From Ignavibacteriota bacterium (lineage in GTDB: Bacteria; Bacteroidota; Ignavibacteria; Kapaibacteriales; UBA2268), in contig JAHBUQ010000001.1 in NCBI GenBank assembly GCA_019637995.1, positions 902,381 to 966,380 on the forward strand: a stretch of DNA of 64,000 bases, in the 5' to 3' direction. Numbering within the stretch: position 1 is the stretch's first letter; every line of letters begins with the position of its first letter. Below the pieces are notes generated by a model. It did not search any database, had not been told where the DNA came from, and saw nothing but the letters and a program-made list of their open reading frames with translations. A program made the translations under genes and the position numbers. This document shows, piece after piece, positions 2,742 through 61,846 of the stretch.

Positions 2742-5348
2742 GTGTATAATATGAAAATTAATTATATAATTTTACTGATTATTTCAATTTTATTTTTGCA
2801 AACTTTAGACTCCAAGAGTCAGCTTTCAAAAGAGCAACTTAAGGTTTTGATGCCATCTGAAAGTCGCTTTGTAACTGACCTGAGTGGGAATTGGGAACGG
2901 ACAGAAAATATGCGTGACTGGACATCTGTAAGGATTCCTTTGTCTGAGCAGATAGATGAAAAAGTCATTTACAAAAGATTTGTCAAAATTCCTGCTGAAA
3001 TGGTTGATAACTTTTCTTGGCAGTTGTATTTCCTTGGAATTGACCATAATGTCGAAGTATTCTGGAATGAGCAATTCATTGGAAAATATGTAGGCTCGTT
3101 AGTCCCTTTTAATGTAAGAATTCCGGATAATACAGTTAGAAACGAAACTAATGAAATAAGACTTGTCATAACACCTGCCACAAGCAAAATTAAACAAATA
3201 CGTAATCAGCACCTTAACGCCAGACGTGAATTTTCCGGAATCATCAGGGAAGTGTTACTTTTTGGAACACCACAGGCTTGGATATCTGATATTAGACATA
3301 ATGTAAAGTTAAAGGGACAAAATTCTGCTGACATTCAGGTTAAAGTCAGTTTGTCAACAGCAGAAATAAAAGCACTTATCAATAAGTTGAAAGTAAAGGA
3401 TTCAATAAGTGTTGCCTCGAATGATAAAATTAAACTTTCAATAATGTCCGAACTCAGGAAGCAGGGTAGTGGTGATTTGATTCAAATTTCATCTGAGAAA
3501 AGCATAACATTAGAAAGTGAAAGAACTATTGATGATGAAATAGCAATGCCTGTATCAGGGATTAATCTCTGGAGTCCTGAAACACCTGATTTGTATTATC
3601 TCACAGTCAAGCTAAAAAGAGGCGATTTAACAATTGATGATTATACTGTTCCAATCGGTTTTCGCTCTCTGAAAACAGCAATGGATGGTGAAAATTCTAT
3701 ACTTCTTCTAAATGGTCAGAATTTTAAACTAAAGGGCGTATCTTATGTAGAAGACTACAAAGACCTTGGTCAATCTCTGACTGTTTCTAAGATTATTCAA
3801 GACATTGAATTAATAAAAAAATTGGGCGCTAATACTGTTAGAGCAAAATTCAATACCCCGCATCCATTCTTTGTTCATTTGTGTAATTCAAACGGACTGA
3901 TGATTATGCTTGAACTTCCGATTTATGATGTACCCTCGAGCCTCATAAATCTCGATGAGATAAAAGTTTATAATCAAAATTTAGCTAAGCAATACGTAAG
4001 TAAGTTTGATATAAATCCATCTGTAATAGCATGGGGAGTCGGTGAAGGAGTTGATGAAAGCACTGAACATTATAAAAATTTTTCTGAATCAATATTAAAA
4101 TTATTTGCTAAAGATTCAGATAAATTAAAATATAAAATTCTCCCTCATGGTATAAGCAAAGTTCATACAGAAGGATTTGATTTTATTGGATATTCCGACA
4201 TCAGACAAAATGTAGATTTCAATCAAATAAATTATGAATTTAAAAGAATTCAGTCCATAATTGATAATAAACCACTATTTATGGCATTTGGTACTGAAAT
4301 TCAAATAAATAATCATAATGGTTATTCCGACCCTCTTTCTTTAGAGTTTCAGGCTTATAATATATTAAACTCTTTTAAAATTGTTGAAAAGAATAATGGA
4401 ATTGGATGTATAGTTAATACATACAATGATTATTTACAAAACAAACCTTCACTGACAACCAACAACGATTTACAGTATATCCAAACAAGCGGACTTGTTG
4501 ACAGAAACCGCCTCGAAAGGCTTTCATTCTCGACTCTTCAGGCATTATTCAATAAAGAAAAAGAACCATTGCTTAACGCCGGCAGTCACACCCGAAGCTC
4601 GCCTCCAATTTATCTGATATTCGGAATTTTGCTGGCAATTTTACTTGTATTTTTAATCAACAGATTCAAACGCTTCAGAGAATATATGTTCAGGTCAATT
4701 CTAAGACCTTACAATTTTTATTCAGATATACGAGACCAGAGAATAATTTCAAGCATTCAAACTATATTACTTGGTGTGATTTTATCATCTACTGTAGGAA
4801 TATTTTTATCCTCAATATTGTTTTATTACAAAGACAGTGAAGTTCTTGAATATTTTCTAATGATACTTTTGCCCTCAAATTCAATCAAAGAGTTTGTTTA
4901 CAGTTTGATATGGATGCCTGAGCTGTCTTTTATTTTTATAACTATTGTAAGTTATATGCTGGCATTTATAACGGCATGGATAATCCGTGTTTTTGCAGTG
5001 CTTTCGCGAGCCAGAGTTTACTGGAATGACTGCCTGACAATTTCTATTTGGGCTGCACTTCCTGCTGTCATTCTTTTGCCGATTTCAATTGTTTTAATTA
5101 GATTACTGGTAGCTTCACCTGCTACAATTTGGCTGTTTTTATTACTTTATGCCACAACAAGTATATGGACTGTTGCAAGACTTCTCAAATCAATTTCTGT
5201 AGTTTTTGATATTCCTGTAATGAGATCATACATAATTGGATTTGTGATAATGTTCATTTCCATTGCAGCGCCACTTGGATATTATCATGTAAAATATTCA
5301 TTTTTTGCATACTCATCATACTTTTTTGAAGTACTATTAAGCAACTAA
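2742..5348 (+). CDS. Membrane-anchored protein with a GH2-like (sugar-binding jelly-roll plus TIM-barrel-like) N-terminal ectodomain and a polytopic C-terminal membrane domain
   Basis: There is a signal/TM segment at the N-terminus. The GH2-like motifs are NTVRAKFNTPHP and IAWGVGEG (compare NxxRxxHYP and WSxGNE). The last ~250 aa form 7–9 predicted TM helices. Confidence 0.45.
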   Translation: MYNMKINYIILLIISILFLQTLDSKSQLSKEQLKVLMPSESRFVTDLSGNWERTENMRDWTSVRIPLSEQIDEKVIYKRFVKIPAEMVDNFSWQLYFLGIDHNVEVFWNEQFIGKYVGSLVPFNVRIPDNTVRNETNEIRLVITPATSKIKQIRNQHLNARREFSGIIREVLLFGTPQAWISDIRHNVKLKGQNSADIQVKVSLSTAEIKALINKLKVKDSISVASNDKIKLSIMSELRKQGSGDLIQISSEKSITLESERTIDDEIAMPVSGINLWSPETPDLYYLTVKLKRGDLTIDDYTVPIGFRSLKTAMDGENSILLLNGQNFKLKGVSYVEDYKDLGQSLTVSKIIQDIELIKKLGANTVRAKFNTPHPFFVHLCNSNGLMIMLELPIYDVPSSLINLDEIKVYNQNLAKQYVSKFDINPSVIAWGVGEGVDESTEHYKNFSESILKLFAKDSDKLKYKILPHGISKVHTEGFDFIGYSDIRQNVDFNQINYEFKRIQSIIDNKPLFMAFGTEIQINNHNGYSDPLSLEFQAYNILNSFKIVEKNNGIGCIVNTYNDYLQNKPSLTTNNDLQYIQTSGLVDRNRLERLSFSTLQALFNKEKEPLLNAGSHTRSSPPIYLIFGILLAILLVFLINRFKRFREYMFRSILRPYNFYSDIRDQRIISSIQTILLGVILSSTVGIFLSSILFYYKDSEVLEYFLMILLPSNSIKEFVYSLIWMPELSFIFITIVSYMLAFITAWIIRVFAVLSRARVYWNDCLTISIWAALPAVILLPISIVLIRLLVASPATIWLFLLLYATTSIWTVARLLKSISVVFDIPVMRSYIIGFVIMFISIAAPLGYYHVKYSFFAYSSYFFEVLLSN

Positions 5349-45522: not shown

Positions 45523-45561
45523 AAACTTCCGAAGTTTTGAAAACTTCGGAAGTTTTTTTTT
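45523..45561 (+). terminator. Long perfect palindromic hairpin plus T-run (terminator or REP-like element)
   Basis: AAACTTCCGAAGTTTTgaAAAACTTCGGAAGTTT forms a 16-bp stem, followed by a T9 run. A second copy of the arms lies at 62909–62941. Confidence 0.65.
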
Positions 45562-45776
45562 ATCTTTCATGAAATTGTCAATTGTCAATTGGTGAAAGCT
45601 ACGTAGTTGCGAACTATTAATAGCAAAAAGATACCCAACACCACCACAAAAATCAATGTTCCCAAAAATCTTTGTGCAATCAAATACCTGAAAGTAGTCT
45701 TGTGCCACTTTCATCTGCAATTCTTGATGTTTGTTTTGTTGGGCATAAGGCAAAATTTGATAAAATGATTCACTAA

Positions 45777-46154
45777 TTAATTATCATCAATATATGAAAA
45801 GGATTGTGGTGGTGCCATATTAAACTCTGCTTTAAGGCATTTAGGGTTCTTATACTTAAAAAACTTCTTAATTTTTATTGCAAACCCTCTTTCTTTATCT
45901 GAAAAATATCTATAATAAAAGTCTTCTGAAACCCCTGAATACTCGTGAGTTAAATGCCAAAGTGTATCAATATCAAAATTTAATATTTCATCTATTTCAA
46001 ATTCACCAATGACCTGTTGAACTGGAGATGAAGCATAAACAATTATTGACTTGACACGTTTATTTTTGAATATTGATCTTCTATACTCAAATTTTTTTGT
46101 TCCATCAAAAATTTTAAATGCAAATTCTGGTTTAATTGATAATAAGACTTTCAT
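45777..46154 (-). CDS. ASCH-domain (PUA-like) protein
   Basis: Canonical ASCH GxKxxExR motif (DGTKKFEYRR) near the N-terminus of a ~125-aa beta-barrel-sized protein. Its start overlaps the end of the upstream 510-aa gene by 23 nt. Confidence 0.75.
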   Translation of the reverse strand: MKVLLSIKPEFAFKIFDGTKKFEYRRSIFKNKRVKSIIVYASSPVQQVIGEFEIDEILNFDIDTLWHLTHEYSGVSEDFYYRYFSDKERGFAIKIKKFFKYKNPKCLKAEFNMAPPQSFSYIDDN

Positions 46155-47664
46155 TTGTTCCCGTTTCTCTTAATATTATTTCAAATTGGGTTTTAGTTAT
46201 TCTTTTTAATCCTCTAATCTCATTGTCTTCACCTGAAAGAATTCCTAAATCTAATAATCTTTGACGATTTATTCTTTTACCTGTTGGGAATGAATGAGTA
46301 TATAGAAAATTTATGATGAAAGGTCTAGATTTTGGAGACCAATTCCAATACTTTCTAAGTTCATTATCGGAAAATATACTTCTTTTTCTACATTTAAGTA
46401 TAAAATCATTTTCATCTGAAATATCAGTAATTTTATCTTCAGCAATTGCAATTGTAGTAATTACACTACTATAATAGGCGGATCTACCTGATGCTGCAGT
46501 TCTATAAAAAACAATGATATCCCCTTTTCTTATATCTCTTTCAATTGAACGAGATATATAAACTTTGCTAATTGCATTTCGATGTGGTTGATTTTCAATA
46601 AAATCGAAAGGAGACTCAGTCGTTAATATTGAATCAGGTAACAATTCTGTATGGTAATCTGGATAAATCGGTATCATAAATATATTTGTTTCTTTAGATA
46701 GATATGGAAATGTGAGTTTGGGATTATTTATATTGAATGCTGGAGTAAAATCACGAACATATACTAATTCTTCACCATTATTTGATGATTTTGTACCATA
46801 GTAAACAAACCCCCATTCCTCAAGCAGCCCAATCAATCTTTTCTGCTCTTCTCTTTTATTGAAAATTGTAACATAAATTTCATCAACTTTATTTTGAATA
46901 GCATTATCAAAAATTATTTTCATAAATCGCTCACCTAATCGTACCCCATTGCTTATGACTTTAAATGTACCTATTTTTAATCTCTTTTTTGGTTTAAAGA
47001 CTGGGGCAATATCTGAATAATTTTCATCACGATTTTCTACTTTCAAGAAGAGAAATGAAAGAATTTTCCCTTTATTTATTGTCACGTAAGCAGTTTCGTC
47101 TGATTTTTTCAAATACCATTTCTCGAACCCTGAATAATCTTCTTTGAAACTATCAAAAAAAGTGTCAGATAAATTTATTTCACCGAATAAATTTTTTGTT
47201 ACCGAAAGTACTTTATAATCAACTAAATCAGGATTTTCTGAAACAACTTTTTCCAGAAAAGAATCAATTTTAAAAACTCTATCATCAATTCCTAGAAGTT
47301 CTGCCTTTTTATGTATTTTCTTATCTTCAGTGATTAGAAAATCTATTCTTTCACTATAAATTTCATTTAAAAGAATTGTATCATTTCTATCATTTTGATT
47401 AACATCTAAAGTTTCTGAAACAACAATTACTTGAGGTCGCAATGGAGTTGTTGTTTTTAAAATCTCATAGCTTTTAAGTTTTACAGAAAGTGTATCAACC
47501 GTTTCCTTATTGCTATTTTTTTCAATCTCTTCAATAGTAATAGGGTGTACGCATTTTGTATATTTACCTTTATCTATCCATCTAAATAGAACTCCAATAT
47601 CAACATTGAAGACTCTACTTGCTTCACGATGAATAATTATGTTTGTGTCTAATAAAACTTTCAT
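46132..47664 (-). CDS. Multidomain protein: N-terminal PIN-like nuclease domain, central GNAT-like acetyltransferase-like region, C-terminal domain of unknown function
   Basis: PIN signature MKVLLDTNIIIH… with a later …FLITEDKK (third acidic residue, TxD). The central region resembles GNAT motif A and its core (ISNGVRLGERFMKIIFD…EIYVTIF…LLEEWGF). No recognisable motif was found in the last ~180 aa. Confidence 0.5.
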   Translation of the reverse strand: MKVLLDTNIIIHREASRVFNVDIGVLFRWIDKGKYTKCVHPITIEEIEKNSNKETVDTLSVKLKSYEILKTTTPLRPQVIVVSETLDVNQNDRNDTILLNEIYSERIDFLITEDKKIHKKAELLGIDDRVFKIDSFLEKVVSENPDLVDYKVLSVTKNLFGEINLSDTFFDSFKEDYSGFEKWYLKKSDETAYVTINKGKILSFLFLKVENRDENYSDIAPVFKPKKRLKIGTFKVISNGVRLGERFMKIIFDNAIQNKVDEIYVTIFNKREEQKRLIGLLEEWGFVYYGTKSSNNGEELVYVRDFTPAFNINNPKLTFPYLSKETNIFMIPIYPDYHTELLPDSILTTESPFDFIENQPHRNAISKVYISRSIERDIRKGDIIVFYRTAASGRSAYYSSVITTIAIAEDKITDISDENDFILKCRKRSIFSDNELRKYWNWSPKSRPFIINFLYTHSFPTGKRINRQRLLDLGILSGEDNEIRGLKRITKTQFEIILRETGTNESLIIN

Positions 47665-47890
47665 AATTAATCTGATTGCATAATTTACAATTCCTAATCA
47701 CCTATCTACATCTTCTCAATAAATGATTTTACAAAAATAGCAAAAAATATAATACTTACACATATTTTTACTGCATTTATTTTCAAGAAGTTTTCCACTA
47801 ATAAAGCCTTCCCAAAGCTCATCACTCAAGGAAGGTCTTTTATTTCATCATCTCCTTCAGGGTCTTGTCCTGAAATAGGTTGACACAAAA

Positions 47891-48316
47891 TTGGAGAAAA
47901 AGATGTCACAAAAGAAAAAATTTCTTATTTTAGGAGACAAGCGAATGTACACAGAGAATTTTAAAAAATCTGTAGTCGCCGAAGTAGAATCAGGTCGCAT
48001 AAGTAAAGAAGGCGCTCGCATAAAGTACGGCATAAAGGGAAATTCAGCAGTACTTAATTGGTGTCGGCAATACGGCAAGAATCAATATAAACCAAAATCA
48101 CCAGGTAGTTTAACTATGAATGACAAGTTGATATCACAAACATATAAAAATCGAATAAAAGAATTGGAGCAGGAACTATCTTCCAGCAAATTGAAAGTAA
48201 GTTATTTAGAAAATGTAATTGACGTACTTCAAGAACAGGGGGTAATAGATGCTGTAAAAAAGCCAGATACACCGCCATTGGTCTCACCAAAGCGGTCAAC
48301 CCGAAAGCATCGATAG
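47891..48316 (+). CDS. IS3-family transposase OrfA (HTH / leucine-zipper part)
   Basis: N-terminal HTH (…YTENFKKSVVAEVESG) and a coiled-coil, typical of IS3 OrfA. The frameshift heptamer lies near its 3' end. Confidence 0.85.
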   Translation: MEKKMSQKKKFLILGDKRMYTENFKKSVVAEVESGRISKEGARIKYGIKGNSAVLNWCRQYGKNQYKPKSPGSLTMNDKLISQTYKNRIKELEQELSSSKLKVSYLENVIDVLQEQGVIDAVKKPDTPPLVSPKRSTRKHR

Positions 48317-48339
48317 AAAGTATATGCAAAATAGCATCA

Positions 48340-49152
48340 TTGAGCCGTCAAGCCTATTATAAGCATAACAGCAAGATAGAACTAGACACAGTAAACAATC
48401 ATAAAGTACTTTCAATGGCTCTGTCTAAGCGTATACGTAATAGTAAACTAAGCTGTAAAAAGATATATTCAATGATTAAAGAAAGTCTCAAAACTGAGAA
48501 TATAAAGTTAGGTCGTGACAAATTTATCAATCTGATGGGTGAAAATGGTTTTCATGTAAAGCGAAAAAGACGTAATCCCAACACAACAAAAAGTAAACAT
48601 ACATTGCCAACATATACAAATAAACTCAAAGGTATAAAGATAAATAGAGCAGACCAGGTCTGGGTTAGCGACATAACCTTTGTTCGAACTTCACAAGGTT
48701 TTATGTACCTGTCATTAGTGACAGATTTATACAGTAGAAAGATTTTAGGCTACAACTTGAGCAAGAGTCAAAAAACTTCGGAAGTAATAAAGGCTTTACA
48801 AATGAGTCTTAAAAATAGTAAACGTCAGTCCGAGACCATCCACCATTCAGATCGTGGAATCCAATATTTATGTAGTGAATATACCAAGCACTTGAAATCA
48901 AATAATATCGAAACAAGCACAACAAAAGGAGGTAGTCCCCAAGAAAATGCAGTCGCCGAAAGAATAAACGGAATCTTAAAGCAAGAATACGGAATCTCAG
49001 ACTTAAGAATAAATATTCCTCAATGTCGAAAATTAGTTAAAGAAGCAATCGAGCTATATAACAATGAGCGCCCACACTTAAGTTTAAATATGAAGACTCC
49101 AGAACAGTATTACAATGAATTTTATTGCAATCTAAATAACAATATTCGATGA
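48340..49152 (+). CDS. IS3-family transposase OrfB (rve integrase-core DDE domain)
   Basis: DDE motifs (DQVWVSDITF, HHSDRGIQY, …ENAVAERINGILKQE). Confidence 0.9.
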   Translation: MSRQAYYKHNSKIELDTVNNHKVLSMALSKRIRNSKLSCKKIYSMIKESLKTENIKLGRDKFINLMGENGFHVKRKRRNPNTTKSKHTLPTYTNKLKGIKINRADQVWVSDITFVRTSQGFMYLSLVTDLYSRKILGYNLSKSQKTSEVIKALQMSLKNSKRQSETIHHSDRGIQYLCSEYTKHLKSNNIETSTTKGGSPQENAVAERINGILKQEYGISDLRINIPQCRKLVKEAIELYNNERPHLSLNMKTPEQYYNEFYCNLNNNIR

Positions 49153-49219
49153 TATTAATCGAATTTATTTTATAATTTATTTGTCAACCATTTTTAGGAC
49201 AAGACACAGAGAGTTGAAA

Positions 49220-49248
49220 CCCCGTCCCCGTCCCCGCCCCTCGCCACC
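49220..49248. repeat. C-rich tract (CCCCG)n-like, a G-quadruplex motif on the minus strand
   Basis: The sequence cccgtccccgtccccgcccctcgcc reads on the minus strand as four G4 runs with 1–2-nt loops. This is very atypical for an AT-rich genome. Confidence 0.8.
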
Positions 49249-49612
49249 TTTTCTATTAATAGTACGCTACTACGTAGCTAAAATATGTGTTTCCGGTGGG
49301 TTTCATTTTTCTATAATCATTTAATCTCTTCGAGATTATTCCCGTGCTACAACATCCATTTTCTATTAATGTTACGCTTCTACGTAGCTAAAATATGTGT
49401 TTCCGGTGGGTTTCATTTTTCTATAAATATTTAATCTCTTCGAGATTATTCCGGTGCTACAACATCCATTTTCTATTAATGTTACGCTTCTACGTAGCTA
49501 AAATATGGGTTTCCGGTAGGGTTTCATTTTTCTATAAATATTTAATCTCTTCGAGATTATTCCCGTGCTACAACATCCATTTTCTATTAATGTTACGCTA
49601 CTACGTTGCTTT
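49249..49612. repeat. Tandem direct repeat, 110-bp unit × about 3.3 copies
   Basis: Unit starts at 49249, 49359, 49469 and 49580, with the last copy truncated. Copies are more than 95% identical. Each carries the TAATCTC-TTCG-GAGATTA hairpin and a CTACGTAG palindrome. Confidence 0.9.
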
Positions 49613-49614
49613 TT

Positions 49615-49664
49615 CCCGACCCCCGACCCCCAACCCCATCCCCTATCCCCAAACCCCCGACTCC
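49615..49664. repeat. C-rich tract with multiple C4–5 runs, a G-quadruplex motif on the minus strand
   Basis: The sequence cccgacccccgacccccaaccccatcccctatccccaaacccccgactcc has at least six G4+ runs on the minus strand. Confidence 0.8.
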
Positions 49665-49803
49665 AGAAATACCTAAGCTCATCGAACAATGCTACAACTA
49701 AAAAATGGATTTTAAGCAGACTCACTACCGGAGTAAAAAAGCCAGCAAAAATTCACCGACAAGAAAATTAACAAATGCCGATTGGGCATATACATATTAA
49801 AAA

Positions 49804-49835
49804 AGTCCGATATTTTGTTCAATACCGGACTTTTT
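49804..49835. terminator. Bidirectional hairpin terminator downstream of the DEAD-box helicase gene
   Basis: The sequence aaaAGTCCGatattttgttcaataCCGGACTtttt has an A-run and a T-run on opposite sides. Confidence 0.5.
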
Positions 49836-49861
49836 AAAATTAATTTTTTTGAATCTGCAAA

Positions 49862-51178
49862 TTATCTCGAATTACTTTGCCTACCATAGCTCTTTGCTGA
49901 ATTACTACTTCTTCCTGCAACAGGTGCATGATTAGCACTAGGTCTCGCATTGTTAGGTCTTCCACGCTGCTGTTTAACAGGTTTTTCGGGCTTGAGATTC
50001 ATCAAAGGGAATGGATGGTCTTCAACAACAGGAATATTCTTTGAAATAAGCTTTTCAACATTACGCAGATGTTCCTTTTCCAATGCGTCACAAAATGAGT
50101 ATGAAGTTCCTTTTGCTCCTGCTCTGCCTGTTCTGCCAATTCTGTGAACGTAAGTTTCCGGAATGTTCGACATTTCATAATTGATTACATATTCCAAATC
50201 ATCAACATCAATTCCACGGGCGGCAATGTCGGTTGCAACTAAAACACGTGTTGTTTGTGATTTAAAATTTGCTAAAGCCCGCTGCCTGGCATTCTGAGCT
50301 TTATTCCCGTGAATTGCTTCTGCGGCTATGTTGTGATTTTGAAGAATTTTTACAACTTTATCAGCACCGTGCTTGGTATTAGTGAAAACCAATGCCGTTT
50401 TAATATTCGTATCTTTCAAAATATTCAATAACAGAGCGTTTTTATTTACCTTGTCAACAAAATACACAGATTGCTTGATGATATCAACTGTTGATGATGC
50501 CGGAGTAACTGATACTTTTACCGGTTTCTGCAAGATAGAGCCGGCAAGATTTACAATTTCAGGTGGCATAGTCGCTGAGAAAAACAGTGATTGCCTTTGT
50601 TTAGGAAGTAAAGTCAGCAATTTCCTGATATCGTGAATAAAACCCATATCAAGCATACGGTCTGCTTCGTCAAGTACGAAAATTTCTACATGCTTTAGAG
50701 TCAGGAATCCTTGATTTAGCAGGTCTAAAAGTCTGCCGGGAGTGGCAATCAGTATATCAACACCACGCTGGAGTACATTAGTTTGAGGTGTTTGTTTAAC
50801 GCCACCAAATATTACTGTGCTGACCAAACCTGTATGCCTGCCATAAGCTTTGAAACTTTCATCAATCTGTATTGCAAGTTCACGTGTAGGAGTAACAATC
50901 AGACTTCGGATTTTTCTTTTTGAACCGTGTGGTTTGGTGTTGCTCAATAATTGTAATATCGGTATCGCAAAAGCTGCAGTTTTACCGGTACCTGTCTGTG
51001 CACAACCAAGCAAATCTTTCCCTTCTAAAACTTTAGGGATAGACTGTGTTTGAATTGGCGTGGGATTTGTATAACCTTCTTCCTGAATTGCTTTTAAAAT
51101 CGGTTCGATTAAATTAAGAGATTTAAACTCTATTTTAGATTCTATTTTTGAAACAATTGTTTCATTTTTCTTTGTCAA
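49862..51178 (-). CDS. DEAD-box ATP-dependent RNA helicase (RhlE/DeaD-like) with a basic C-terminal tail
   Basis: Q-motif, AQTGTGKT, DEAD (VLDEADRMLDMGF), SAT and HRIGRTGR motifs. The C-terminal tail is rich in Arg, Gly and Ser. Confidence 0.9.
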   Translation of the reverse strand: MTKKNETIVSKIESKIEFKSLNLIEPILKAIQEEGYTNPTPIQTQSIPKVLEGKDLLGCAQTGTGKTAAFAIPILQLLSNTKPHGSKRKIRSLIVTPTRELAIQIDESFKAYGRHTGLVSTVIFGGVKQTPQTNVLQRGVDILIATPGRLLDLLNQGFLTLKHVEIFVLDEADRMLDMGFIHDIRKLLTLLPKQRQSLFFSATMPPEIVNLAGSILQKPVKVSVTPASSTVDIIKQSVYFVDKVNKNALLLNILKDTNIKTALVFTNTKHGADKVVKILQNHNIAAEAIHGNKAQNARQRALANFKSQTTRVLVATDIAARGIDVDDLEYVINYEMSNIPETYVHRIGRTGRAGAKGTSYSFCDALEKEHLRNVEKLISKNIPVVEDHPFPLMNLKPEKPVKQQRGRPNNARPSANHAPVAGRSSNSAKSYGRQSNSR

Positions 51179-51314: not shown

Positions 51315-51632
51315 TTACACAATCTTAATTCCGCTTCTCAAAATCTCTTCAACTATTGGATTATCGGAATTAAAATCATTCTTACGAAATGTATGTGGTT
51401 GAATATCAATGCTTGTTTTTAAAGTGGCACCGGCAATTTTTTTTAAATCAAGAAATCTATTTCCAACAAAATCATCTGAAATAAGAGCAACATCAATGTC
51501 GCTCCATTCATTATAAGTGCCTTTAGCATAACTCCCAAAAAGAAAAGCTTCAACAATTTTAATCTGTGATTGCTCAATTTGTTCAACTAGTTTTTTGACT
51601 AAATCTATAGCTTTATTTGTGCTTTCAGCCAT
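51315..51632 (-). CDS. Nucleotidyltransferase-domain protein (MNT-type, minimal Pol-beta fold) without an adjacent HEPN partner
   Basis: GSxxxG…DxD motif (GSYAKGTYNEWSDIDVALIS). No HEPN-like ORF lies within 140 bp downstream. Confidence 0.7.
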   Translation of the reverse strand: MAESTNKAIDLVKKLVEQIEQSQIKIVEAFLFGSYAKGTYNEWSDIDVALISDDFVGNRFLDLKKIAGATLKTSIDIQPHTFRKNDFNSDNPIVEEILRSGIKIV

Positions 51633-51807
51633 AGGTATTACTTTGTAATTTGATAATATAAAAGTAACGATTAATTCAATAAATATTGTTTAAAATATTA
51701 ACAAATTGCTTGTGAAAAATCTGTATTTTAAATCAAGAAATTGCAATTTAAAAGAAATAATTTCGTTAATATTTGTTTGAATATGTATAGTAAGTAGAGA
51801 TATACAA

Positions 51808-51987
51808 ATGCCGGAAATATCACGTTTTTTTGGAATTATAATAACGATGAATTTCAACGACCACAATCCACCACATTTACATGCTGAATACGGTGAGTTT
51901 GAAGCAATTTTTGATATTCAGGGTAATTGTATTATTGAGGGTAATTTACCACGAACTGCTATTAAACTTGTAAAAATCTTGGATTAA
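51808..51987 (+). CDS. DUF4160-family small protein (59 aa), absent from the ORF track
   Basis: Translation MPEISRFFGIIITMNFNDHNPPHLHAEYGEF… matches the DUF4160 signature (SxFxGIxIxMxxxDHxPPHxH). It sits directly upstream of the DUF2442 gene, which is the usual pairing. Confidence 0.6.
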   Translation: MPEISRFFGIIITMNFNDHNPPHLHAEYGEFEAIFDIQGNCIIEGNLPRTAIKLVKILD

Positions 51988-52071
51988 CATACATAATGTC
52001 GAATTATTAGAGAATTGGAATTTATTGAGAAATTCTTTACAACCAATTAAGATAACCCCATTAAAATAAAA

Positions 52072-52302
52072 ATGATAAAAATTACAAACATATCTCACAT
52101 AGAAAATTATCTACTGAAAGTATCTTTTGATGATAATACATCAAAAATTCTTGATTTTGAAAAAATACTCGAATTTAAAGGAATGGCACAACCACTAAAA
52201 AATATTGATTATTTTAAATCCGTTAAGTTATTGAGAAATGGAAGAAGTTTCGGTTGGGATAATGATTACGATTGTTGTGCCGATTGGGCGTACAGATATT
52301 GA
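52072..52302 (+). CDS. DUF2442-family protein
   Basis: MIKITNISHIENYLLKVSFDDNTSKILDF… is the typical DUF2442 N-terminus. Its partner DUF4160 gene lies 85 bp upstream. Confidence 0.7.
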   Translation: MIKITNISHIENYLLKVSFDDNTSKILDFEKILEFKGMAQPLKNIDYFKSVKLLRNGRSFGWDNDYDCCADWAYRY

Positions 52303-53226: not shown

Positions 53227-53457
53227 ATGAAAACAGTATCACTAAAAATAGACAATTCTATATATGATGATTTAGAATCAGTATTAGCCAATTTCAAAAT
53301 ATCAAGAAACAGATATATCAACGATGCAATTAGATTCTATAATGATTTCCAAAAGAGACAAATCCTCGAAATCGAATTGGAAAAAGAGTCGAAACTTGTC
53401 AGTTCAGAATCAATGAAAGTTTTGGGAGAATTTAGTGAGTTGGATTATGTTGACTAA
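53227..53457 (+). CDS. Ribbon-helix-helix (CopG/MazE-like) antitoxin
   Basis: N-terminal beta-strand plus two-helix RHH pattern (TVSLKIDNSIYDDLESV…ISRNRYINDAIRFY). Its 3' end overlaps the toxin gene by 23 nt. Confidence 0.5.
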   Translation: MKTVSLKIDNSIYDDLESVLANFKISRNRYINDAIRFYNDFQKRQILEIELEKESKLVSSESMKVLGEFSELDYVD

Positions 53458-53791
53458 ACAGTTTGAAATCTGGCTTGCAGATTTGAACCCACAAATGGGA
53501 ACAGAACCGGGAAAGACAAGACCTGTACTAATCATACAAACAAATTTGCTTAATAAAATTCCGCATCCATCAACTATTATTTGTCCAATTACAACAAATG
53601 TTGAACCTGACTCTAAAATATTAAGGGTGAATATACCTCATAATACAACAGGACTGAATAAAAATAGTGATATTATGATTGACCAAATTCGTGCAATTGA
53701 TAATAAAATGTTAATCAAAAAAATTGGTGAATTACCTGATAATTTAATATCAAAAGTGAAAATGAATTTGATTATACTTTTGAATTTCTAA
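53435..53791 (+). CDS. PemK/MazF-family type II toxin (mRNA interferase)
   Basis: FEIWLADLNPQMGTEPGKTRPVLIIQ… is the MazF/PemK hallmark (…GxEQxGxRPxxVV/II). Confidence 0.8.
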   Translation: MSWIMLTKQFEIWLADLNPQMGTEPGKTRPVLIIQTNLLNKIPHPSTIICPITTNVEPDSKILRVNIPHNTTGLNKNSDIMIDQIRAIDNKMLIKKIGELPDNLISKVKMNLIILLNF

Positions 53792-61446: not shown

Positions 61447-61552
61447 TACAATTGATAATTGATAATTGAAAATTTAAATTAATGGACTTGGCTTTTTGAG
61501 GTTAAGTCCATTTTTTGTTTGGAATGAAATATCTAAATTGAATTCACCTGAT

Positions 61553-61846
61553 TTATACTCTATTTTTCCAATAATCTGGTTTTCTTTTAGAGTGCATTAT
61601 TGCAACAATAACAATTTTCTTCTTATCAATAAAGTAAATAATATTATATGGAAATCGCTTACATGGGCATTTTCGGGTTCTATCAGACAACTTTTTCCAT
61701 AGATATGGAAAATAAATAATACGTTTAATTGATTTTTTAACTTCCTCTGCAAATTCGTTTCCCAATTCGCCAAGTTGCTTGTTATAGTATTGAACGGCTT
61801 CCTTTAATTCGTTTTCTGCAGGTTCGAGAAATGTAACTTTATACAT
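61553..61846 (-). CDS. RelE/ParE-family type II toxin (plasmid-stabilisation protein)
   Basis: C-terminal …IVIVAIMHSKRKPDYW hallmark of the ParE/RelE superfamily, with a length of about 97 aa. Confidence 0.65.
   Translation of the reverse strand: MYKVTFLEPAENELKEAVQYYNKQLGELGNEFAEEVKKSIKRIIYFPYLWKKLSDRTRKCPCKRFPYNIIYFIDKKKIVIVAIMHSKRKPDYWKNRV

Follow-up and report, generated by a model that had tools for sequence, protein, structure and literature searches.

The stretch of DNA analyzed here, a window of 64,000 nucleotides from the genome of an Ignavibacteriota bacterium, carries between positions 49220 and 49664 a tandem array with a C-rich tract on either side. The question raised by this locus is what kind of element the array is and what it might do. 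The original prediction had offered a recombination element of the Neisseria pilE type, an array of structured RNAs, a barrier to transcription or replication and a target hotspot for the neighboring IS3 element. We suggest that the array is a locally amplified copy of an undescribed, lineage-specific, noncoding mosaic intergenic repeat, which is present in two genomes (that of the window strain and that represented by the 7-kb metagenomic contig L008), and we put the probability of this reading at about 0.6.

Tandem Repeats Finder reports a single array from 49249 to 49610 with a period of 110, 3.3 copies, 95% matches and no indels, as well as a weaker period of 52 within the same array. Three near-identical 110-bp units and a truncated fourth had been described, and the unit starts (49249, 49359, 49469 and 49580) are exact, but the third unit has 111 nt. 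The 110-nt unit is itself composed of two diverged half-units, A (57 nt) and B (53 nt), which follow a common plan: a shared head, TTTTCTAT(T/A)AAT, and then a small hairpin with a three-base loop. Half-unit A reads TTTTCTATTAAT-GTTAC-GCTAC-TAC-GTAGC and half-unit B TTTTTCTATAAAT-ATT-TAATCTC-TTC-GAGATTA, each continued by a tail. The modules are thus arranged as C tract, (A-B) three times, A, C tract, with the last A directly abutting the right tract (Table 1). The hairpin of half-unit B is identical in its three window copies and appears in every predicted fold. Its 7-bp stem had been recognized correctly, but the loop is the trinucleotide TTC and not of the UUCG type, which counts one G twice. 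Likewise, the palindrome CTACGTAG had been assigned to each unit; it is whole in copies 1 to 3, but copy 4 reads CTACGTTG. The stem of half-unit A is mismatched in four of five copies. A further, solitary A module lies 3.6 kb away from the array, and since it precedes AATTGAC heptads and not a C tract, C-richness is not obligatory for these modules.

Table 1. Features of the repeat array and its surroundings (positions in the 64,000-nt window)
Feature	Position	Strand	Evidence
Left C-rich tract, CCCCGTCCCCGTCCCCGCCCC (49220-49240) then TCGCCACC	49220-49248	+	Minus strand: predicted four-run G4 motif with 1-2-nt loops; G4Hunter -2.52
Half-unit A copy 1, head TTTTCTATTAAT, GCTAC-TAC-GTAGC, CTACGTAG at 49270-49277	49249-49305	+	nhmmer A profile, E 6e-11
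Half-unit B copy 1, head TTTTTCTATAAT, hairpin 49322-49338	49306-49358	+	nhmmer H1 profile, E 2e-12
Unit 2: A2 49359-49415, B2 49416-49468, hairpin 49432-49448	49359-49468	+	Tandem Repeats Finder, nhmmer profiles
Unit 3 (111 nt): A3 49469-49526, B3 49527-49579, hairpin 49543-49559	49469-49579	+	Tandem Repeats Finder, nhmmer profiles
Truncated fourth A module, palindrome CTACGTTG, abuts right C tract	49580-49614	+	Sequence, nhmmer profiles
Right C-rich tract, seven C3-5 runs at 6-7-nt spacing: CCCGAC CCCCGAC CCCCAAC CCCATC CCCTATC CCCAAAC CCCC	49615-49664	+	Predicted minus-strand G4 motif; G4Hunter -2.84
Solitary A module, then AATTGAC heptads, then bidirectional terminator hairpin 45523-45555	45590-45627	-	90% identical to 49249-49279; nhmmer E 1.6e-9
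IS3-family insertion sequence, 1346 bp, neighbor and not part of the repeat	47861-49206	+	CAG target duplication, 47858-47860 and 49207-49209
Bidirectional intrinsic-terminator hairpin, stops the convergent gene of the DEAD-box helicase; boundary of the intergenic region on the right	49797-49838	.	Hairpin

The array is noncoding, as there are stops in all frames and the period is not a multiple of 3; a 93-aa open reading frame running over it is spurious because neither 110 nor 111 is divisible by 3 and every frame contains stops. As had been proposed, it is no CRISPR array either: the intervals between the hairpins are repeats (95% identity) or low-complexity tracts and do not contain unique spacers. 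On the anatomy of the array we reject readings as CRISPR, attC sites, coding sequence, promoter array and intrinsic terminators. Just beyond the right C tract, positions 49688-49713 read GCTACAAC and then TAAAAAATGGATTTT; the first 8 nt of this site equal the tail of module B, and the 15 that follow match the complement of the B/A junction AACATCCATTTTCTA at 87%. It may be a rearranged repeat fragment or a chance resemblance.

The tracts at 49220-49240 and 49615-49658 carry four and seven C runs, respectively, that is, at least four on either side. The pattern CCCC-N1-7-CCCC-N1-7-CCCC has only two matches in the 64-kb window, both flanking the array, where shuffled sequences lead to an expectation of 0.01. 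G4Hunter (25-nt window) peaks at -2.52 in the left and at -2.84 in the right tract, and the 99.9th percentile of the 64-kb window is 1.56. On the minus strand, where the G-run units are GGGGATA, GGGGAT, GGGGTT and GGGGGTC, the ViennaRNA quadruplex model predicts four-layer quadruplexes that are about 36 kcal/mol more favorable than the best duplex fold. The view that the flanks are canonical minus-strand G4 motifs is therefore in keeping with the sequence, which is as had been given, with the G4Hunter scores of 2.5 and 2.8 and with the predicted four-layer structures. They are also anomalous in composition for this genome, as had been noted: the genome has 34% GC, the window ranges from 25 to 40%, and there are just these two C4-run tracts in 64 kb.

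GC-extreme repeats of this kind could be assembly artefacts. However, a second assembly, GCA_026129425.1, is 100% identical over 49207-49932 and contains all units and both tracts in the same copy number on a piece that starts at a contig end. We conclude that the array and its tracts are not artefacts of assembly, since the whole structure recurs without a difference. One contig of the second assembly stops at window position 47860 and the next begins at 49207, which are the two ends of the insertion sequence, a repeat with multiple copies. By exact look-up, the window belongs to an uncultured Ignavibacteriota / 'Candidatus Kapabacteria' MAG; its proteins (MBX30428xx) are found in the second assembly as MCW58858xx, and the sole match of the 423-aa helicase is to the same assembly. 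Both assemblies stem from the same strain, so their equal copy number is uninformative on polymorphism. The open reading frame over the array and two variants of the helicase start gave no record in the exact look-up.

Relatives of the repeat were sought by scanning metagenomes with an exact 21-mer of the hairpin. The only real relative is on contig L008 (7150 bp, 31% GC); L010 was discarded as a relative because its lone 37-nt match has no family features around it. On L008, which is otherwise unrelated to the window, module B (called H1 there) is present in eight copies at nhmmer E-values from 1e-6 to 1e-13 with a profile that was built from the same 11 copies, namely the eight of L008 and the three of the window. 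Plain BLAST of the window region against L008 likewise finds 80-91% identity over 34-55 nt (E 3e-3 to 4e-14), and the mean column identity of the copies of both sources is 84% over 46 nt. The contig has a second hairpin module of its own, H2, with six copies of the form GTTACAGATATTYA-ATCCC-NNN-GGGAT-AATTTC. Profile searches found no module A on L008 and no H2 in the window.

C-rich repeats of 6-7 nt follow six of the eight B/H1 copies of L008, either directly or past the second hairpin module, and the other two are followed by the next hairpin module. An example is CCCTAAC CCCTAAC CCCGAAA CCCAAAA CCCGATA. At least four runs of three or more C are found in eight of the 10 tracts tabulated (eight from L008 and two from the window). 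For the L008 tracts, on a contig with 31% GC, G4Hunter gives 1.6-2.1 on the G strand, where the run units include GGGTATC, GGGTTTC and GGGGTTA. Because six of the eight B copies on L008 precede such repeats, we regard the pairing of a hairpin module with a G4-capable tract as a trait of the family; and as the two are coupled on L008 and a solitary A module occurs in the window, we treat hairpin modules and tracts as one dispersed, modular repeat family. The tracts had been seen as brackets of a unique array. This no longer holds, since C-rich 6-7-nt repeats recur after hairpin modules on L008; the tracts at the flanks represent a recurring module of the family, and their predicted propensity for quadruplexes is very high.

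The layouts on L008 comprise four tandem units of about 122 nt, an H1-H2-C element paired with an H1-C element, a solitary H1-C and one inverted copy. Within the tandem cluster, as in the window array, all modules have the same orientation. The internal tandem unit is present in 3.3 copies in the window, as four units on L008 and as solitary copies elsewhere. Orientation to the genes varies: three of the four L008 clusters are co-directional with them, and the window array is antisense to its two neighbors. The elements come after terminators and ahead of a promoter-like module, and they separate small same-strand gene pairs which resemble toxin-antitoxin pairs by sequence appearance alone.

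The promoter-like module, R, measures 118 nt and is found on the minus strand of L008 at 4086-3961 and at 3234-3111, in both cases after an H1-C element; the two copies are 97% identical and head two different small-gene pairs. It has a -7 box of the Bacteroidota type (TAATTTTG) and a mini-ORF encoding MRNKRR*. The organization around it looks cassette-like, and the 7-kb contig contains no recombinase.

Such an organization brings to mind attC-like recombination sites or the boundaries of a gene-cassette system. The separation of small gene pairs that look toxin-antitoxin-like, the nearly identical copies of module R that stand behind the element and open two distinct cassettes, and the wealth of toxin-antitoxin genes in the window neighborhood would fit. 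However, a regular expression scan of the array and of the L008 elements finds no RYYYAAC...GTTRRRY core pairs. There is no long imperfect palindrome, as the folds contain only local hairpins of 5-7 bp, and neither integrase nor Y1 transposase is among the 30 annotated proteins between 27 and 64 kb of the window. Moreover, elements stand in tandem with no genes in between. In our view such a role is improbable.

With 11 copies of the B/H1 hairpin at hand, the proposal of a structured noncoding RNA array can be judged as well. It would consist of small structured or cis-regulatory RNAs, each unit contributing one or two hairpins when the plus strand is transcribed. The B hairpin is indeed perfectly kept in the three window copies and in all folds, and a single G-U wobble substitution is found in L008. 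Rfam 15, on the other hand, yields no match at gathering score, and at E of 10 or below it gives nothing for the array and only sub-threshold noise at the helicase terminator; for L008 there is no match at E of 1 or below. The fold of the whole region has z-scores of -2.2 on the plus and -0.8 on the minus strand. Among the 11 hairpins there are no compensatory changes, 12 of 77 stem cells are unpaired, and shuffles do as well. To this come the mismatches in the A stem and the absence of a Bacteroidota-type -7 box (TAnnTTTG) from both strands of the unit, as read from the sequence. An RNA array is thus unlikely.

The repeated dyads could also serve a dimeric DNA-binding protein, in the manner of centromere-like sites or regulatory iterons. 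Direct 110-nt repeats with two dyads each, CTACGTAG and TAATCTC-N3-GAGATTA, have the right appearance. Against such iterons speak the chromosomal setting with no partition or replication genes nearby, the scattering of single modules in 3' intergenic regions (on L008 and at 45.6 kb in the window) and the free decay of the dyads between copies. We therefore strongly doubt this interpretation.

The exact 21-mer of the hairpin gave four chance matches of 21-24 nt in 185,579 species genomes. In viral contigs it was unmatched, as were two further patterns from L008, and BLAST of 49205-49800 against plasmids and phages returned nothing. Two protein-based queries, a chimeric six-frame translation of the spurious reading frames for other arrays and the concatenated L008 proteins for related contigs, also gave no match; both queries were probably ill-suited and are uninformative. 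About 100 kb of DNA from syntenic relatives, whose helicases are 78-95% identical in amino acids, contains no module and no tract, and where the helicase gene is 79-87% identical in DNA, homology ends near the helicase stop codon. A search of the relatives for the unit and its flanks had been suggested; the outcome is that the element is not conserved at this locus. As these 100 kb are free of copies, its abundance appears low or patchy. For the tracts, the DNA seen gives two per 64-kb window, eight on the 7 kb of L008 and none in the relatives.

Short tandem repeats of other sequence are found in the same lineage. In the window, 3.6 heptads AATTGAT (61450-61474, plus strand) come right behind the methylmalonyl-CoA mutase stop codon and just ahead of a terminator hairpin at about 61484-61516, and the same layout of heptads and terminator is seen at 45570-45590 on the minus strand, with the AATTGAC heptads after the solitary A module. 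L008 has AATTACG three times in a row, twice after stop codons, and contig L013 has ACTTTATA octads next to terminators. This lineage thus seems prone to short tandem repeats in its 3' untranslated regions. The bidirectional terminator hairpin at 45523-45555 has a perfect 15-bp stem (AAACTTCCGAAGTTTT-GAA-AACTTCGGAAGTTT) and recurs with 97% identity at 3976-4013 and 4956-4992 of L013, the closest relative, where coding DNA is only 87% identical; this hairpin could belong to a dispersed repeat of the terminator type. Downstream of a helicase with 90% amino acid identity, contig L015 (3178-3290) carries C- and G-rich hairpins, ATCCCCCTAACCCCC ... CAGGGGGAT and CCCCTGCCCCACGC ... GCGTGGGG, which have no sequence kinship with the repeat family of the array.

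How does this family relate to known repeats? Closest to the tracts are the heptameric intergenic G4 repeats GGGNATC and GGGGA(C/T)T of Xanthomonas and Nostoc, with a preference for four units; they are transcribed but serve no known function, and slippage has been proposed as their origin (Rehm et al. 2015, PMC4692102). The tracts described here share with them G-run units of 6-7 nt, usually at least four runs, an intergenic position often between aligned open reading frames and variation of length and sequence between copies. They differ in that the tracts are degenerate and heterogeneous, with only some units fitting the consensus (GGGGAT, GGGTATC), in their rarity in the DNA seen (two in 64 kb), and in that they are coupled to hairpin modules in an AT-rich Ignavibacteriota host.

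The comparison also bears on the suggestion that quadruplexes drive recombination and antigenic variation here as at Neisseria pilE. Two very strong G4 motifs on one strand and a region that varies between relatives are what such an element would display. The neighbors, however, are a DEAD-box helicase gene, a PIN/ASCH operon and an IS3 transposase; there is no variable surface-protein gene and no silent donor copy nearby, nor are there paralogous donor sequences in the window. In addition, the same type of tract recurs beside the toxin-antitoxin-like cassettes of L008, and no link to phase variation has been found for the documented heptameric G4 repeats (PMC4692102). We give a pilE-like role next to no chance.

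In its architecture the family is reminiscent of the BOX elements of Streptococcus, which are built as boxA-boxB(n)-boxC (PMC3049150). Both are intergenic modular mosaics with an internal module amplified in tandem, distinct terminal modules and spurious open reading frames. Yet the array has no sequence similarity to BOX; it lacks terminal inverted repeats, both its flanks are C-rich on the same strand, and no target duplication is evident. REP/BIME and REPIN clusters, on the other hand, go with RAYT transposases and alternate in orientation (PMC2817692, PMC3333891). The modules described here are likewise small, clustered extragenic hairpins with a conserved flank downstream of genes, and REP sequences are known IS targets; but the modules of the array and of L008 are in direct and not in alternating orientation, AT-rich stems close their 3-nt loops, the 30 proteins annotated at 27-64 kb include no RAYT/Y1 transposase, and the copy number appears low. 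Cyanobacterial STRR sequences are intergenic tandem heptanucleotide repeats which come in several flavors within one lineage. Heptamers also come in flavors here (CCCNAAN, AATTGAY, AATTACG), though with different sequences, in a different phylum, and either coupled to hairpin modules or placed between stop codon and terminator. Since the features that define BOX and REP (inverted repeats, target duplication, alternating orientation and RAYT) differ, we place the family outside any named one.

The array shares its intergenic region with an IS3-family element, which has HTH_Tnp_1 and rve open reading frames and imperfect terminal inverted repeats. The array had been said to begin 11 bp from the right end of this element; the C tract in fact starts 13 nt and the first unit 42 nt away from it. 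This closeness invites the explanation that the array is a preferred insertion target of IS3-family elements, a role that REP sequences play for IS1397 and further IS (PMC1525189). In metagenomes, the same IS (99.8-100% identical) occurs in five further copies on contigs L021-L026 (L021 and L024 represent one site). Their flanks (four different ones on the left, one on the right) are unrelated to the array and contain no module and no C tract. A hotspot is thus very unlikely. Because the units differ by about 5% and the IS copies by 0.2% or less, the array is older than the insertion.

To the left of the IS lies the minus-strand operon of PIN_3 (510 aa) and ASCH proteins and to the right the DEAD-box helicase gene (49862-51178, minus strand), behind which two weaker terminator-like hairpins are found besides the one listed in Table 1. 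The array is antisense to both neighbors and lies in the interval that separates the helicase terminators from the PIN/ASCH promoter. Farther out, the chromosome is unremarkable, with genes for T9SS-tailed proteins, acyl-CoA dehydrogenase, methylmalonyl-CoA mutase and RsmB, and the 30 annotated proteins at 27-64 kb of the window include no integrase, Y1 transposase or Cas family. Genes of the toxin-antitoxin type are dense around the array (45777-47664, 51315-52302, 53435-53791 and 61553-61846) and comprise PIN_3 with ASCH, an MNT nucleotidyltransferase, DUF4160/DUF2442, MazF and ParE; the PIN_3 protein has a long C-terminal extension with no Pfam match. The start of the helicase gene (51133-51178, minus strand) is uncertain: GCA_026129425.1 annotates 423 aa from an ATA codon, the longest open reading frame begins at a TTG 15 codons upstream of it, and the closest homologue (95% identity) has 430 aa.

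We suggest that the mosaic repeat arose and took its present place as follows. The family comprises two types of module, one with the conserved head TTTCTAT(A/T)AA(C/T)RTT followed by a stem of 5-7 bp and a 3-nt loop, the other made of short C-rich tandem repeats of 6-7 nt which could form quadruplexes on the opposite strand. The 110-nt periodicity could have been created when the heads of A and B, which are nearly identical, recombined unequally or slipped, and the C tracts by polymerase slippage of the 6-7-nt units. The region downstream of the helicase is variable, and the element would have entered it or grown there; the IS3 copy would have inserted beside the element later and by chance.

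Rho loads on C-rich, G-poor RNA, and a G-rich nontemplate strand favors quadruplex and R-loop formation. Transcription of the array in one direction would yield just such a C-rich, G-poor RNA, possibly a good Rho loading site, and in the other direction a quadruplex or R-loop could form on the G-rich nontemplate strand. The array might in this way passively punctuate transcription between the helicase terminators and the PIN/ASCH promoter. Its location there, and that of the L008 elements behind terminators and ahead of the promoter-like module, would suit such an insulator. Of the roles originally proposed, a barrier to transcription or replication is thus weakly favored. A passive transcription insulator is our leading guess, which we purely infer and hold with low confidence; provided that the array is the mosaic repeat we take it to be, a real insulating effect is possible rather than probable, and neutral selfish DNA may be at least as likely. 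It is a long shot that the hairpin-plus-C-tract elements act more generally in Ignavibacteriota as orientation-independent insulators or boundaries of small accessory-gene cassettes (toxin-antitoxin or defence), by way of Rho-loading C-rich RNA and a quadruplex or R-loop, and possibly as breakpoints at which some recombination system exchanges cassettes.

As known at present, the array represents a descriptive repeat family of an uncultured organism, the practical effect of which lies mainly in assembly breaks and spurious open reading frames. If the coupling of hairpin modules and tracts holds genome-wide, the little-studied class of heptameric G4 repeats would extend to a new, AT-rich phylum. 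G4 repeats would then also be tied to a defined sequence context, which could give a clue to the origin of the tracts and to whether transcription is punctuated by them.
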